Source: an uncultured Bacteroidota bacterium (GTDB lineage: Bacteria; Bacteroidota; Bacteroidia; 2-12-FULL-35-15). Taken from it: a stretch of DNA of 45,749 nucleotides. Positions 11,157 to 40,490 of the stretch are shown piece after piece. The translations under genes were made by a program, and so were the position numbers. Below the pieces are notes generated by a model. The model did not search any database. It was not told where the DNA came from and saw only the letters and a list, made by a program, of their open reading frames with translations. The stretch lies in NCBI GenBank assembly GCA_903870175.1, contig CAIQBY010000260.1, forward strand, positions 1-45,749, given 5' to 3'. Each line of letters opens with the position of its first letter. Position 1 is the stretch's first letter.

Positions 11157-11267
11157 CTTTAATGATTATTTATTTGGGAGATTAGATAAAGATTATTGTT
11201 TATGATTTTTTACAAAGCAGTTTGCCAATTCAATTATTACTTAATACCTTATTTCACTTTTACCTCG

Positions 11268-11625
11268 ACTCATTTCTTTTTGATAAAAACTCATTAGTTG
11301 GTTATCAAAACTAATTGGTTTTTATGCTCGCCTCGTTGCTTTTTATTCTTTACTCAACCCTTTTTTTGCTCAGCTCAAACCTTATTACCCTCAGCTCATT
11401 GGTTTTTGTGCTTTACTCGGTAGTTTTTGCCCAAAACTCCCGAGTAAATGGCATTTACTCCCGAGCTTTTCGTCATTTACTCCTGAGTAAACCCGTTTTA
11501 CTCCCGAGTAAAGTGCTTTTACTCCTGAGTTTTGGCTCCAAACCAATGAGTAAAGCATCAAAACTACCGAGTTGCGGTCAAACACCTGTAAACATTGAAG
11601 AAAATGATTTGAGTTTTGACCCAAA
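11268..11625. repeat. Degenerate 21-bp-period array (15-17 units) with central ACTC-nn-GAGT cores
   Basis: Anchors at 11268, 11289, 11310, 11331, 11352, 11373, 11394, 11415, 11436, 11457, 11479, 11500, 11521, 11542, 11563 (one 22-bp step); a GAG is still in phase at 11611. Confidence 0.85.
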
Positions 11626-22759: not shown

Positions 22760-22795
22760 AAAAAATCCCATTATGTATTTTCATAATGGGATTTT
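22760..22795 (-). terminator. Intrinsic terminator of the 22848..23567 gene
   Basis: aaaatcccattatg / cataatgggatttt stem with a T run on the minus strand. Confidence 0.8.
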
Positions 22796-22847
22796 AATAT
22801 CCTGTCAAACATCAATTCGCAAATTCGTATCCATTCGTTATCCGTAC

Positions 22848-23567
22848 CTACGGAATTCGGAAACTTTGCGGTGCGCTCCAGTCGCCTTTAATACCGGTAG
22901 CGGTAACCCATCGGGAACAGGAATAAAACAGGAGACCTGAATATTTTGAGTTGAAAACAAGAATCATCGGTGTACGTGTTCCGTCTTCTATCCGTCCATA
23001 ATCATCAGCACTATCGGGTGGCACAGCAAAAGCAATCACTCCTTGAGCATCAGGCGGCAGCGGCGTACAAATAAAAATAGCTGTTTCCACACGTGCTGCA
23101 CCTTCCGGTTTTCCTCTTTTTTTCACACCTTTAGCATCCGGCTGCTGGCGATAAAATGATTTTACATTTGGAGGATTGCCTGCCTGCATCGCCATCAAAG
23201 GCACAGTTGCAGGTTTGCCTATCTTGGTTTTAGTAGTTTTATGTGGTTTTAATCCGCAATCCGACACATCTCCGTCATCCATCGAATCGTTTGCATAAAT
23301 CCATACTTTCACAAATTTACGCATCCATTTACTAAGATTAGCGCGTGCTATGTCTTTTTTATCCCTTTGAGTAGTGTTGGACTTAGTTTTCTTTTTAGTA
23401 ATCGCATATATTTTGCTCCACGCAATAAGCAAAGTCGCGCCTGCTGCTATTACGGTGGTATCAATATCCCAGTCGGCAGCATTATCCGTTACTTCTTCCA
23501 TTATTTGATTTACAAGCGTATCATACGTTTCGTCGGGTCCGCCAAATTGGTCTGTACTGTCTGACAT
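22848..23567 (-). CDS. Cytoplasmic hypothetical protein: predicted helical domain plus FN3-like C-terminal domain
   Basis: Intact 239-aa ORF with no signal peptide; C-terminal KPEG..T.TP..F..RWVTATGIKGDWS..IP pattern; has its own terminator. Confidence 0.8.
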   Translation of the reverse strand: MSDSTDQFGGPDETYDTLVNQIMEEVTDNAADWDIDTTVIAAGATLLIAWSKIYAITKKKTKSNTTQRDKKDIARANLSKWMRKFVKVWIYANDSMDDGDVSDCGLKPHKTTKTKIGKPATVPLMAMQAGNPPNVKSFYRQQPDAKGVKKRGKPEGAARVETAIFICTPLPPDAQGVIAFAVPPDSADDYGRIEDGTRTPMILVFNSKYSGLLFYSCSRWVTATGIKGDWSAPQSFRIP

Positions 23568-23642
23568 TTTATTATTTATTTAATTGTTATTACTATTATT
23601 ATTAACTCTTTTTCCGTTTTATTAAATTACTTTATTTTATTC

Positions 23643-23831
23643 GGGAGTTCCCTGTTTTTATTTGGGAGCTCCTGTTTTTAAAAAGGGACTTCCCGTTTTT
23701 TATTCAGGAGTTCCTGTTTTTTAAAAGGGAGTTCCCTGTTTTTATTTAGGAGCTCAAGTTTTTAAAAAGGGAGTTCCCGTTTTTTATTTGGGAGCTCCTT
23801 TATTTTATTTGGGAGTTCCTGTTTTTTAAAA
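23643..23831. repeat. Nine tandem 21-bp units, consensus GGGAG(T/C)TCCY plus T/A tract
   Basis: Units start at 23643, 23664, 23685, 23706, 23727, 23748, 23769, 23790, 23811; unit 1 equals unit 5. Confidence 0.95.
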
Positions 23832-23880
23832 TTGCCTCCGATTATTTTTACTTTCAAAACCTTCAATGACCTTAACACGA

Positions 23881-23924
23881 CAAAAGTATTTGGTAAAAAG
23901 AAGAGAAACGTAGGGAAGTCCCTA
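23881..23924 (-). promoter_or_regulatory. -7 promoter (TACTTTTG, 23881-23888) with upstream palindrome TAGGGAAGTCCCTA (23911-23924)
   Basis: Exact TAnnTTTG; 6-2-6 inverted repeat in an activator-like position. Confidence 0.65.
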
Positions 23925-23933
23925 TTTCTTTTT

Positions 23934-24374
23934 TTATTTTTCCTGAGAAGATTTATAAAGCGAAGTAATGGATTGTTTGGAAGTACCGCATCCGGTAGAT
24001 TCATTGAGATTAGTAATAATTATTTCCAGCACTTTTTTTCCAATACCTAAATTATCAGCCGCCAGTTGCACTGTTTTCCCATCACTCAATTCAATAAAAG
24101 CTTTTATATCAAGGTCTTTATATCCTTTCTTTTTACAAAAAACAATAAACACGGTATCAATCTCCGAAAGTTCTATAGGCAGCGTCTTTTCAGATATTTC
24201 CGTGATAACAACAGCAAGCGGCAGGTTATGTTCATCATCATATATTACATTGGATAATATAGTTTGATGAACATACAAATAACATTCTCTCATATTATTT
24301 GCTGAATAAATAAATGTACTTGTAGATTGTTTTTTATTATCATAAAAAATAATTAAATATTCTTTTGTTTTCAT
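23934..24374 (-). CDS. Putative regulator with divergent C-terminal LuxR/GerE-type HTH
   Basis: DIKAFIELSDGKTVQLAADNLGIGKKVLEIIITNLNESTG fits the LuxR pattern L..G.T...A..L.I.......... Confidence 0.65.
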   Translation of the reverse strand: MKTKEYLIIFYDNKKQSTSTFIYSANNMRECYLYVHQTILSNVIYDDEHNLPLAVVITEISEKTLPIELSEIDTVFIVFCKKKGYKDLDIKAFIELSDGKTVQLAADNLGIGKKVLEIIITNLNESTGCGTSKQSITSLYKSSQEK

Positions 24375-25852: not shown

Positions 25853-26230
25853 ATGTCAATAATAAAATTACCCTTATTGTTTGAAGGCTCCAAAGGAGAA
25901 AAAACATTAGTAGCACTTTTTGATTCGGGCGCTACATTTTCCTGCATGAGTTTGCAATCGGCAGAAGGGTTGGCAACCTTGGAAAAAATGCGCCACCCGT
26001 TAGAAGTAGCAACTGCTTCAATGGGTATTTATCTAAAAATAGAATATGCAATTCGGTTGGATTTTTATTATAACGACATCCGTCTTTCTGATGAATTTAT
26101 GGTAATTCCCAATCTTTCGGAAGATGTAATATTAGGAGTAAACACCTTTCAAAAATGGAGAATCAAATTGGATTTTGAACACGATACCGTAATCATCGAC
26201 CCCAAAGTAGCAAAAGCAATCCTTAAATAA
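25853..26230 (+). CDS. Retropepsin-like aspartic protease
   Basis: ALFDSGATFS catalytic motif, VILGV; -7 element TACTTTTG at 25833-25840. Confidence 0.85.
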   Translation: MSIIKLPLLFEGSKGEKTLVALFDSGATFSCMSLQSAEGLATLEKMRHPLEVATASMGIYLKIEYAIRLDFYYNDIRLSDEFMVIPNLSEDVILGVNTFQKWRIKLDFEHDTVIIDPKVAKAILK

Positions 26231-36255: not shown

Positions 36256-36270
36256 ATTTAATACCTGATG

Positions 36271-36298
36271 TTTAGAATTTAGATATTAGAATTTAGAA
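36271..36298. repeat. 4 x 7-bp TTTAGAA-type repeat
   Basis: tttagaa tttagat attagaa tttagaa. Confidence 0.75.
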
Positions 36299-36306
36299 TT
36301 TAAAAC

Positions 36307-37860
36307 CTATACCTTTATTTCATCATCATTTTTATTTAAGAAATGATATTCCAAAAAGTTGTATGACGAAACAGCTTTCACCTTCAAGGTTTTGCCGTAT
36401 TTTTTACTCCACTGTCTGCGTAGCGAATTAAATATTCCTCTTGTTATAAATGCCTCCAGATATGGATGAACACAAAGAGTTACACCCGATTCATTTTGTT
36501 CTTTTAATATATATCTAACATTGTTTTCTATTTCATCCATCAACAATATACTTGCCTGTATCTCACCGCTGCCGCCGCATGTAGGACATTTCTCTACAGT
36601 CACAATATTCATTTCAGGGCGCACACGCTGACGCGTAATCTGTATCAACCCGAATTTACTTGGTGGCAGAATATTATGCTTTGCCCTGTCCTTCGCCATT
36701 TCATCACGCATCCTTTCGTAAAGCATTTTACGATTATCAGCATTATGCAAGTCGATAAAATCAACAACTATAATACCGCCCATATCGCGCAATCGCAATT
36801 GGCGTGCTATTTCTACAGCTGCTTCCAGGTTTATTTCCAGCGCATTTGTTTCCTGATTGTTATCCGATTTTGCACGATTGCCGCTGTTCACGTCAATCAC
36901 GTGCATCGCCTCAGTATGCTCCACTATCAGGTAACCGCCACTTTTCATGGTTACAGTTTTTCCAAACAGCGCTTTTATTTGTCTGTCAATCCCGAAATTA
37001 TCAAAGATGGGAACAGTCCCTTTATATAGTTTTAGTATTTTCTCTTTATCAGGCGCAATAGTTTGCAAATACGTTTTTGTTTCTTCATACAATTCAGCAT
37101 CATTTATATGAATACTGTTAAAGCTCGCATTCAATAAATCACGAAGTATGGCAGATGTTCTGTCAATTTCACCAAGTACTTTTTGCGGAGGTTGTGCAGT
37201 TTTTAATGCCTGATAACATTTTTCCCATTTCGCCACCAAATCATTCAAGTCAGCATCAAGGTCAGCTACCGATTTTCCTTCAGCAACAGTTCTTATAATA
37301 ACTCCGAAATTTTTTGGCTTTATGCTCGCAAGCAATCTTTTTAATCGCGTTTTCTCTTCGTTGGTTTTTATTTTTTGCGATACAGAAATCTTGTCCGAAA
37401 AAGGAATCAGAACAATATATCTTCCTGCCAGCGAAATTTCTGTTGTAATTCTCGGACCCTTTGTAGAAATCGGTTCCTTCGCTATCTGAATAAGAAGCTG
37501 TTGATTTGCATTTATTACAGTTCCTATTTTCCCGTCTTTCGGTATATCATTTTCCAGTTTAAAATACATCAGGTTCGATGTAGTTTGTTTTTCTGTCTGA
37601 ACAAGTTTTGTGTACTTGCTAAACGAGTTGGCTTGCGGACCTAAGTCCAGATAATGCAAGAATGCGTCTTTTTCGTATCCCACATCCACAAAGGCGGCAT
37701 TCAATCCGGGCATCACTTTTTTTACCCGTCCAAGATATATGTCGCCAACCGAAAAATTATTGTTGCTCTTCTCACGATTAAGTTCTACTAATCGTTTATC
37801 ATTCAATAAAGCAATAACAACTTCGGAGGGAGTGGAATCAATGATTAATTCGTTGTTCAC
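36307..37860 (-). CDS. rng: Rne/Rng family ribonuclease (RNase G/E)
   Basis: S1 domain GDIYLGRV..AAFVDVG, KEPISTKGPR, IDVNSG, RQLRLRDMGGIIVVDFID, CPTC Zn link. Confidence 0.95.
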   Translation of the reverse strand: MNNELIIDSTPSEVVIALLNDKRLVELNREKSNNNFSVGDIYLGRVKKVMPGLNAAFVDVGYEKDAFLHYLDLGPQANSFSKYTKLVQTEKQTTSNLMYFKLENDIPKDGKIGTVINANQQLLIQIAKEPISTKGPRITTEISLAGRYIVLIPFSDKISVSQKIKTNEEKTRLKRLLASIKPKNFGVIIRTVAEGKSVADLDADLNDLVAKWEKCYQALKTAQPPQKVLGEIDRTSAILRDLLNASFNSIHINDAELYEETKTYLQTIAPDKEKILKLYKGTVPIFDNFGIDRQIKALFGKTVTMKSGGYLIVEHTEAMHVIDVNSGNRAKSDNNQETNALEINLEAAVEIARQLRLRDMGGIIVVDFIDLHNADNRKMLYERMRDEMAKDRAKHNILPPSKFGLIQITRQRVRPEMNIVTVEKCPTCGGSGEIQASILLMDEIENNVRYILKEQNESGVTLCVHPYLEAFITRGIFNSLRRQWSKKYGKTLKVKAVSSYNFLEYHFLNKNDDEIKV

Positions 37861-40364: not shown

Positions 40365-40490
40365 AAGGTAATGTCGAAGATTTTTGTGGTAAAAACTTAA
40401 ATTTCTGTGGTAATCTTCAAAAATTCCGTGGTAAAAACTTCATTTTTTGTGGTAGAATTTTAAAATTCTTTGGTAAAAACATAGTTTTTC
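40365..40490. repeat. Six 21-bp-period units with GTGGTA core
   Basis: Cores at 40365 (aaggta), 40386, 40407, 40428, 40449 and 40470 (ttggta). Confidence 0.88.

Follow-up and report, generated by a model that had tools for sequence, protein, structure and literature searches.

A phased 21-bp repeat array between genes for a small LuxR-type regulator and an FN3-like protein, and its probable place in a recurrent module of a Bacteroidota lineage

Known repeat systems and anatomy of the cassette

Iterons of theta-replicating plasmids (R6K, RK2, F and pPS10) are sets of 4-10 direct repeats of 17-22 bp, i.e., about two helical turns, and the partition centromeres sopC of F and parC of R1 are tandem repeats upstream of an operon whose small DNA-binding product coats them cooperatively. 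Here, an array of 21-bp units is described that lies between the genes of a small regulator (p146) and a 239-aa protein (p239) on contig CAIQBY010000260.1 of an uncultured Bacteroidota bacterium; the window, i.e., the whole stretch of DNA analyzed, comprises 45,749 nt. With a probability of roughly 0.85, this cassette belongs to a lineage-specific module that recurs and in which 21-bp arrays are linked to S genes and, in many cases, to a private LuxR-type regulator. The term S genes denotes several orphan families that encode proteins of 200-300 aa (p239-, C141/C217/C152-, C149- and C208-type). Tentatively, and at somewhat less than even odds, the array may be a phased multi-operator in a transcribed leader that is read by the private regulator.

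The array resembles iterons in its phased direct repeats and in the gene of a presumed DNA-binding reader that adjoins the repeats in both; in addition, pairing between arrays of the same sequence at two sites would be possible, similar to the handcuffing of iterons. It differs from them in that no Rep-like Pfam family was found in six neighbouring proteins, p239 has no plasmid or phage match, and hundreds of arrays from 141 unit families occur on chromosomal contigs beside housekeeping genes. Moreover, the arrays here lie in leaders of non-replication genes, and the neighbour is of the LuxR type and not a winged-helix Rep protein. Plasmid iterons were ruled out, since there was neither an adjacent Rep initiator nor a plasmid or phage origin location. 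The tandem array of about 10 units, each with a dyad, upstream of an operon is reminiscent of partition centromeres, but the Pfam scan of the neighbours revealed no ParA/ParM-type ATPase in or beside the cassette, and many arrays are present per genome. A CRISPR (clustered regularly interspaced short palindromic repeats) array was ruled out, since the units are contiguous head to tail, without spacers. Regulators of the LuxR/NarL/GerE type (lux box, NarL 7-2-7 sites) share the four-helix helix-turn-helix (HTH) fold with p146, and the 10-bp dyad core of the unit would be of suitable size for them; p146, however, scored below the Pfam GerE cut-off and matched neither a receiver nor an autoinducer-binding domain. 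To our knowledge, no LuxR-type regulator has 8-11 contiguous phased sites in a leader, and none was found in literature searches.

Two published repeat classes are also comparable. According to 'Satellites in the prokaryote world' (PMC6749651), only 21 surveyed species exceed 4 satellites per Mb, and Leptospira interrogans and Methanocella conradii are the only cases of dispersed intergenic satellite families in its set. These satellites, too, are tandem repeats between genes and form dispersed families in a few species; here, by contrast, arrays of at least five units occur at about 49 per Mb, with one fixed period and tied to particular gene families. The words 'Bacteroidetes' and '21 bp' do not occur in that text. 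Abundant intergenic TAACTGA direct repeats with a proposed post-transcriptional regulatory role are described for marine Beggiatoaceae (PMC4679880). They share the genome-wide intergenic distribution and the proposed regulatory role with the arrays described here, but consist of one shared 7-nt unit, whereas the 21-bp units are array-specific and paired with S and HTH genes. Literature searches found no described system with this layout, in line with the initial annotation, which had known of none; the additional files of PMC6749651, with satellite families per species, might include a comparable case.

The cassette is read on the minus strand. It begins with the p146 gene (146 aa; 23934..24374), followed by the palindrome TAGGGAAGTCCCTA (23911-23924, not assigned to a strand) and by an exact TAnnTTTG box (TACTTTTG; 23881-23888) 52 bp upstream of the array; we take the TAnnTTTG consensus to be the Bacteroidota-type -7 promoter element. 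The array of about nine head-to-tail 21-bp units (23635..23831) is separated from the start codon by a 67-nt A-rich remainder of the leader (23568..23634). The p239 gene (239 aa; 22848..23567) and, 3' of it, an intrinsic-terminator-like hairpin of 14 pairs followed by a T-run (22795-22762) complete the cassette. Every feature listed in the initial annotation was recovered from the sequence, the list of open reading frames (ORFs) or the output of Tandem Repeats Finder (TRF) at the coordinates given there.

TRF described the array with a period of 21, 9.2 copies and 70% matches (23635-23828). Since the periods 42 and 84 scored better, with 81% and 84% matches, respectively, two unit types alternate in a higher-order repeat. 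The unit is composed of a GGRASYTCCC dyad core and an A/T-rich spacer. As previously claimed, the palindrome core GGGAAGTCCC (23913) and the core GGGACTTCCC of a unit at 23685 proved to be exact reverse complements. The palindrome starts 10 nt past the p146 stop codon and also scores as a weak terminator-like hairpin; from its sequence, it is a candidate single operator, a weak p146 terminator, or both. The exact sequence GGGANNTCCC occurs 17 times in 3.95 Mb, with about 12 occurrences expected from composition, and five of the 17 copies lie in the window cassette, the palindrome included.

The sequencing runs that carry the region are lake-water metagenomes from one study, and no RNA run is among them. 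With regard to phase variation by unit number, as in contingency-locus VNTRs (variable-number tandem repeats), contigs from four of these runs contained no 21-bp insertion or deletion in the array, and a 4-nt gap at 23741 was present in three runs; such contigs drop rare variants. The stretch 23880-24056 was not covered in two of the four runs.

The C-terminal part of p146 (residues ~78-143) is predicted to form a four-helix HTH of the LuxR/GerE type, preceded by an N-terminal alpha/beta domain of unknown type. The AlphaFold2 (AF2) model is of moderate confidence (predicted local distance difference test, pLDDT, of 72). In the Foldseek search with this model, RhlR, SdiA and QscR ranked first, and the DNA-binding domains of GerE, LiaR and VraR were superposed with root-mean-square deviations (rmsd) of 1.0-1.9 Å. 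The top 16 rows obtained by VIA for residues 72-144 were all of the LuxR/NarL/FixJ type (Z 8.0-9.9, rmsd 1.1-3.5 Å, 59-69 residues), and 3clo, ChrA and TraR gave Z values of up to 9.9 with rmsd of 1.4-1.8 Å over 62-64 residues. An iterative profile search within the genome merged p146 with NarL/FixJ-type regulators. The p146 paralog on contig C165 scored 23.5 bits against Pfam GerE (PF00196), equal to the cut-off of 23.5; the ORF in the same position in the genome G027 scored 40.4 bits, and the C127 ORF 15.3 bits. Judged by its modelled fold, p146 is a LuxR/GerE-type HTH protein; this part of the initial annotation was borne out by VIA, Foldseek and the paralog at the cut-off. A word-indexed protein search with p146 returned its own cluster only, and neither p146 nor p239 had a significant match among PDB sequences.

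The p239 protein, which has no signal peptide, is predicted to start with a bundle of three helices (12-91) and to end in an FN3 sandwich (117-239). The AF2 model, built from a 17-sequence alignment, reached a pLDDT of 85.9. By VIA, residues 117-239 aligned to 4yfe_B with a Z of 11.0 and an rmsd of 2.1 Å over 95 residues, and all 50 matches listed for the C-terminal half were FN3 or cytokine-receptor domains; Foldseek found FN3 domains at E about 1e-3. Thus, the helical/FN3-like character that had been assigned to the protein from its sequence was supported by the model. No Pfam (fn3 included), NCBIfam or PHROG family scored above cut-off: the best PHROG match reached only E 0.016, and the best NCBIfam match was the 'PQLLE family' with 20.6 bits against a cut-off of 80. 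The word 'PQLLE' was not found in the literature, and 10 other S proteins had no NCBIfam match. In a profile search of 1.84 billion cluster representatives, the p239 family comprised 5,181 matches at E<=1e-3, of which 258 reached E<=1e-30; with few exceptions, the 150 matches listed were full-length proteins of ~220 aa. In the ESM Atlas, look-alike clusters (218-257 aa), named 'hypothetical protein', are listed for Bacteroidota, Spirochaetota, Planctomycetota and Verrucomicrobiota, and the word-indexed search found seven relatives.

Two further observations concern the p239 gene itself. With 43.5%, the GC content of its coding region (22900-23499) is above that of the neighbours (~30%) and of the genome (35%), which may reflect recent acquisition or unusual codon usage. 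A stretch of about 35 nt across the p239 stop codon (22815-22852) recurs with 1-3 mismatches in several unrelated contigs from each of the four lake metagenome runs, and TRF reported a 10-nt repeat within it (22823-22843); it may be a small dispersed element.

Recurrence of 21-bp arrays and association with S and LuxR-type genes

The assembly (3.95 Mb, 423 contigs, 35% GC) was scanned with TRF. Period 21 was represented by 377 rows and its multiples by 145 (42), 79 (63) and 26 (84) rows, and no other period had more than 55. Among rows with at least five copies, 198 had a period of 21, six a period of 20 and none a period of 22. Given this sharp excess, the window array is not due to chance. 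The 352 merged period-21 loci make up 1.2% of the genome, and the 209 long arrays (at least 80 bp) 6.9% of the non-ORF DNA. Long arrays that the crude ORF caller placed inside genes lay almost all in spurious ORFs of ~300 nt made of the array itself. The cassette, which the initial annotation had taken for a one-off, is one of dozens within this class.

The 209 long arrays fell into 141 unit families, with 93 singletons, 31 pairs, 14 triples and three quadruples. Array length was not geometrically distributed and had its mode at 8-11 units, the upper limit of which may be set by short-read assembly. Of the 209 long arrays, 37 lay within 300 bp of a contig end (6.4% expected). The arrays appear to fragment the short-read assembly; therefore, their true number and length are probably underestimated.

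S genes were strongly associated with arrays. An array of at least 80 bp was located within 800 bp upstream of 27 of the 52 S genes, as compared to 208 of the 3231 other ORFs (6.4%), with an odds ratio of 15.7 (p 3e-18); among the 25 S genes that lack such an array, nine begin within 100 bp of the end of their contig. The p239-family profile found 12 members in this genome, ten of which have a period-21 locus within 800 bp upstream. The S families were not combined into a single superfamily, since hhalign joined C141, C217 and C152 (80-99.9%) and left p239, C149 and C208 unlinked. Similarly, eight of the 18 small LuxR-like ORFs (up to 190 aa) were followed by an array within 700 bp downstream, as compared to 174 of the 3268 others (5.3%; Fisher p 2e-6). 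The order HTH gene, array, S gene also recurred at C165, C152, C127, C390, C26 and C71.

Short dyads, in most cases with a spacer of only 0-1 nt, were overrepresented among the units: 34% of the units, as compared to 12% of the shuffles, had arms of at least 5. Judging from the unit sequences, this is the symmetry expected for DNA sites of protein dimers and not for RNA hairpins. Resolved contexts of long arrays were divergent in 55 cases, tandem in 71 and convergent in 28, with background gaps numbering 245, 511 and 144, respectively.

The very sharp period could also be a property of the DNA as such. Curved DNA would act independently of sequence, with the 21-bp phasing adding up bends so that a curve of ~200 bp recruits a nucleoid-associated silencer or shapes topology; the LuxR-type proteins would then be ordinary neighbours or counter-silencers. 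The nearly unconstrained unit sequence across 141 families, the many units without a dyad, the many units in which A/T tracts alternate with a G/C core, and the presence of arrays in all intergenic contexts are all in keeping with curvature. However, it leaves unexplained why arrays of the same unit occur at 2-4 loci and why arrays are restricted to genomes with S genes (see below), and no candidate nucleoid-associated protein was identified. We regard this explanation as quite improbable.

Several further origins and roles of the arrays were tried and rejected. Arrays do not mark genes of secreted proteins, which were found at 36% as compared to 35% in the background by a crude signal-peptide rule. 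No terminal motif shared around the arrays emerged, apart from a weak TTTTTGG enrichment in 21 of the 141 families. Copying of units from phage DNA was rejected with two 21-nt units, which had no exact match in viral contigs. Copying from single-copy sites was rejected as well: 50 of the 209 units matched at least 18 nt outside arrays, which is no excess given our own chance estimate of ~0.28 per unit, and several of these matches were arrays missed by TRF. The extent of homology beyond the arrays could not be taken from blastn, which was confounded by neighbouring arrays on the same contig.

An IS200/RAYT-like HUH transposase (RAYT, REP-associated tyrosine transposase; REP, repetitive extragenic palindrome) is present in three copies of 90-100% identity (C189:15601-16131, C33:42809-43339 and C198:760-1290) and in fragments. 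Two of the copies have a 21-bp array 290-580 bp upstream, and in one of these two arrays the unit is a palindrome with 10-bp arms. As a spreader of the arrays, this transposase was rejected, since a homolog was found in 18 of 41 genomes and not in the array-rich genomes G019 and G022. In bacterial interspersed mosaic elements (BIMEs), units alternate in orientation. REP/BIME elements were ruled out, since RAYT does not track the arrays, no dyad of more than 3 bp is present in 70 of 185 units, and the repeats are direct and in tandem.

Co-occurrence of arrays and S genes in relatives

The closest matches of the window's valyl-tRNA synthetase (ValRS, encoded by valS) were found in uncultured Bacteroidia metagenome-assembled genomes (MAGs). 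Genes similar to that of p239 were present in five of the 41 relatives searched, the window genome counted, and in two of 401 genomes drawn across the phylum. In all seven p239-like loci besides that of the window, found in relatives or elsewhere in the same genome, an array of period 21 or 42 lies directly upstream, and its unit differs in each. In metagenomes, p239 loci with an array were seen as L133-135, i.e., one locus seen three times, and L136, making two independent loci; none was present at L126, and the sequence upstream of L132 is just 372 bp long. With the C141-type profile, several copies each were found in G006, G007, G019 and G022, and weak matches in G031 and G037. An upstream array of at least four units is present at 11 of the 16 external C141-type loci and a shorter one at two; the remaining three, cut by contig ends, have none. 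A LuxR-type ORF precedes the array in five of 24 external loci, whose flanks are short (L082, L086, L160, L161 and L173). Thus, homologs with arrays and HTH neighbours of their own, on which the initial annotation had staked its proposal, do occur.

The cassette of G022 has the same gene order as that of the window. Its p239 is 68% identical, its p146 only 37%, and its unit is wholly different, i.e., unit and regulator turned over together, which fits co-divergence of a regulator and its site. None of the genes that flank the window cassette was found within 1.5 kb.

Arrays and S genes also co-occurred across genomes. Regions of relatives away from known S genes were sampled, with S status defined by two profiles only and with genomes that are related and hence not independent. 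Genomes with S genes had 16 arrays of at least five units in 442 kb (G006 seven, G027 two, G022 two, G007 two and G019 three), whereas none was found in 489 kb of genomes matching neither profile (G003, G014, G018, G020, G002 and G004). The dichotomy held in every sampled genome, with arrays in five of five that have S genes and in none of six without, and had been predicted before the sampling of G019, G007, G002 and G004. The valS neighbourhoods of 80 Bacteroidota (1.37 Mb) contained a single long array, that of L005. This locus of a palsa-soil Bacteroidetes MAG carries 11.3 copies of a 21-bp unit directly after valS (L005:12695-12936), and its ValRS is 73% identical to that of the window. 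An empty-site comparison beside valS was abandoned, since L002 is not syntenic.

Such an all-or-none distribution among species of one genus would also be produced by a lineage-specific selfish or mobile satellite. In this case, arrays of ~200 bp, with or without an S gene, would be copied to new intergenic sites by some form of recombination or templated synthesis with a 21-bp ruler; S and HTH genes would ride along or encode the machinery, and effects on expression would be incidental. Dispersal is evident from the 48 of 141 unit families with 2-4 copies and from the second copy of the window array at C392:8650-8880, which aligns with the array of the window (C260) unit by unit, including ~20 bp of flanks, and has neither an S nor an HTH gene. 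Arrays occur in every intergenic orientation and adjoin C-terminal S-gene fragments at C189, C279, C70, C89, C125 and C172. The absence of the window's flanking genes from the vicinity of the G022 cassette, and a pair of loci (C179 and C340) that share flanks yet differ in units, also suit a satellite.

Against this explanation, no transposase, integrase or polymerase is consistently adjacent to arrays, the RAYT-type transposase does not track S-positive genomes, and no terminal motif is common to the families. A tblastn search of 72,556 plasmids gave no match of p239, nor did phage records or viral contigs contain one, and a search of phages and plasmids for the cassette pattern found nothing. 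In addition, the constant site upstream of S genes in several families and genomes and the peaked number of 8-11 units suggest selection. Taken together, we consider a satellite rather unlikely as the explanation.

One array family has four copies (C66:2828-3859, C189:3778-4329, C279:1605-2250 and C70:2-394), each directly 3' of one and the same S gene or of its 88%-identical C-terminal fragment, which suggests that segments of gene end plus array were duplicated or that partial silent copies exist. The loci C179:3690-6188 and C340:8946-11231 are paralogous, with a near-identical 142-aa upstream ORF, flanks and S gene, and have unrelated array units. Within this conserved frame, the array has turned over.

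Three further arrays of this period were found in the window. One (11260..11580, plus strand; ~320 bp) has the unit ACTCCCGAGTAAA...; it is much longer than the span given by TRF (11436-11530), with degenerate units continuing to the left. The same unit family is found in reverse orientation at C369:200-560, upstream of a gene for a 604-aa membrane protein. Another (40380..40489, plus strand), with a GTGGTAAAA core and 4.8 copies by TRF, is intergenic, between two minus-strand genes, and the last one comprises 2.5 copies (36256-36308; TRF). Beside valS, a 125-aa ORF (25853-26230) matched a retroviral-type aspartyl protease family (Pfam RVP_2, 28.2 bits, above cut-off).

Leader, proposed mechanism and significance

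In seven cassettes, the array is preceded, at a distance of 30-90 bp, by an exact TAnnTTTG box. The density of exact boxes was 1.7 per kb upstream of arrays, 0.70 in leaders and 0.76 genome-wide, and only one exact box was found inside 7.1 kb of arrays. In the window, none lies between the array and the p239 ATG. The earlier placement of the array in a leader is therefore supported as far as the upstream box recurs, the promoter consensus being our assumption.

If transcribed, the array could act as RNA. The leader of ~310 nt would form a long imperfect hairpin or, much like the trp leader for TRAP, offer ~9-10 equal sites for an oligomer, possibly the S protein; termination, stability or translation would thereby be controlled. 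Such a role would agree with the position of the only exact -7 box upstream of the array, here and in six other cassettes, and with the predicted fold of the window leader (-62.6 kcal/mol; z = -4.5 compared to shuffles). The narrow number of 8-11 units is as expected if it matches an oligomer, and a weak A-excess was found on the sense strand in 21 of 35 cassettes (Wilcoxon p 0.015). However, the arrays have no GC skew relative to the gene and no consistent strand skew, the AT skew being only weak, and a spacer of 0-1 nt within a dyad is too short for a hairpin loop. Solo arrays between convergent genes have no obvious promoter, S proteins are not consistently basic (family median isoelectric points of 5.5 to 9.7), and Rfam, at the gathering threshold, had no match in the window. 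We regard an array that acts as RNA as quite improbable.

For the phased multi-operator, which we prefer, we infer binding of p146 to the units, the transcription start site, the sign of the regulation and the function of the S protein. The module would start with a promoter and a 5' leader that contains ~8-11 phased 21-bp repeats, followed by a monocistronic gene that encodes a cytoplasmic protein of ~200-300 aa and by a terminator, often with the gene of a private small LuxR-type HTH protein directly upstream. The array would act as double-stranded DNA, with one HTH dimer per dyad core of the unit (here GGRASYTCCC). Since 21 bp correspond to two helical turns, all dimers would lie on one face of the helix, and they would fill the array cooperatively. 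Located downstream of the transcription start, the array would then be a switch-like roadblock or counter-silencer of the S gene, and arrays with the same unit elsewhere (here at C392) would be further targets or decoys.

A number of findings weigh against a regulator-read array as the rule. Only 27 of the 209 long arrays lie upstream of a recognised S gene, and 141 unit families face only 18 small LuxR-like ORFs. The C392 copy of the window array is located between two large genes, with no S or HTH gene nearby. Other arrays lie 3' of S genes or beside the C-terminal fragments mentioned above, a position that would not be expected from an operator function alone. Arrays are frequently adjacent in pairs, and 70 of 185 units are without a dyad longer than 3 bp. 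Convergent gaps are not depleted of arrays (28 of 154 resolved contexts as compared to 144 of 900 background gaps), and some long arrays lie between housekeeping genes, convergent ones included. None of 13 HTH cassettes had a significant extra isolated copy of its unit (P<0.05); hence, the separate operator copy that had been seen in the window is not a general feature. Finally, p146 matched no Pfam family at E<=1 and no NCBIfam family, so that its membership in LuxR/GerE rests on the fold and a locally built profile. Since most arrays have no HTH or S neighbour and some lie between convergent housekeeping genes, the private titration switch of the initial annotation cannot cover the whole class, although arrays and HTH neighbours do recur as it had implied.

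A broader interpretation, which we put forward as speculative and unlikely, is that S genes and 21-bp arrays are two halves of an undescribed, horizontally spreading system in which each array family is a private DNA 'address'. Such an address, of fixed period and size (~200 bp), would be produced by a templated or recombinational mechanism that works like a ruler, its reader would be the cognate small regulator or the S protein, and dispersed arrays with the same address would couple distant loci via a shared regulon, decoys or physical pairing. In view of the 5,181 unannotated p239-family representatives and the look-alikes in several phyla, the system may be widespread and overlooked.

For genome analysis, the arrays matter because they break short-read assemblies and are easily mis-called as ORFs. 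Private pairs of regulator and array might serve as orthogonal, cooperative switch parts for Bacteroidota. If functional, the arrays would provide context and a testable hypothesis for thousands of unannotated proteins of ~220 aa, and arrays of fixed period and private sequence that are tied to a large 'dark' protein family would represent a new regulatory or genome-architectural principle in bacteria.

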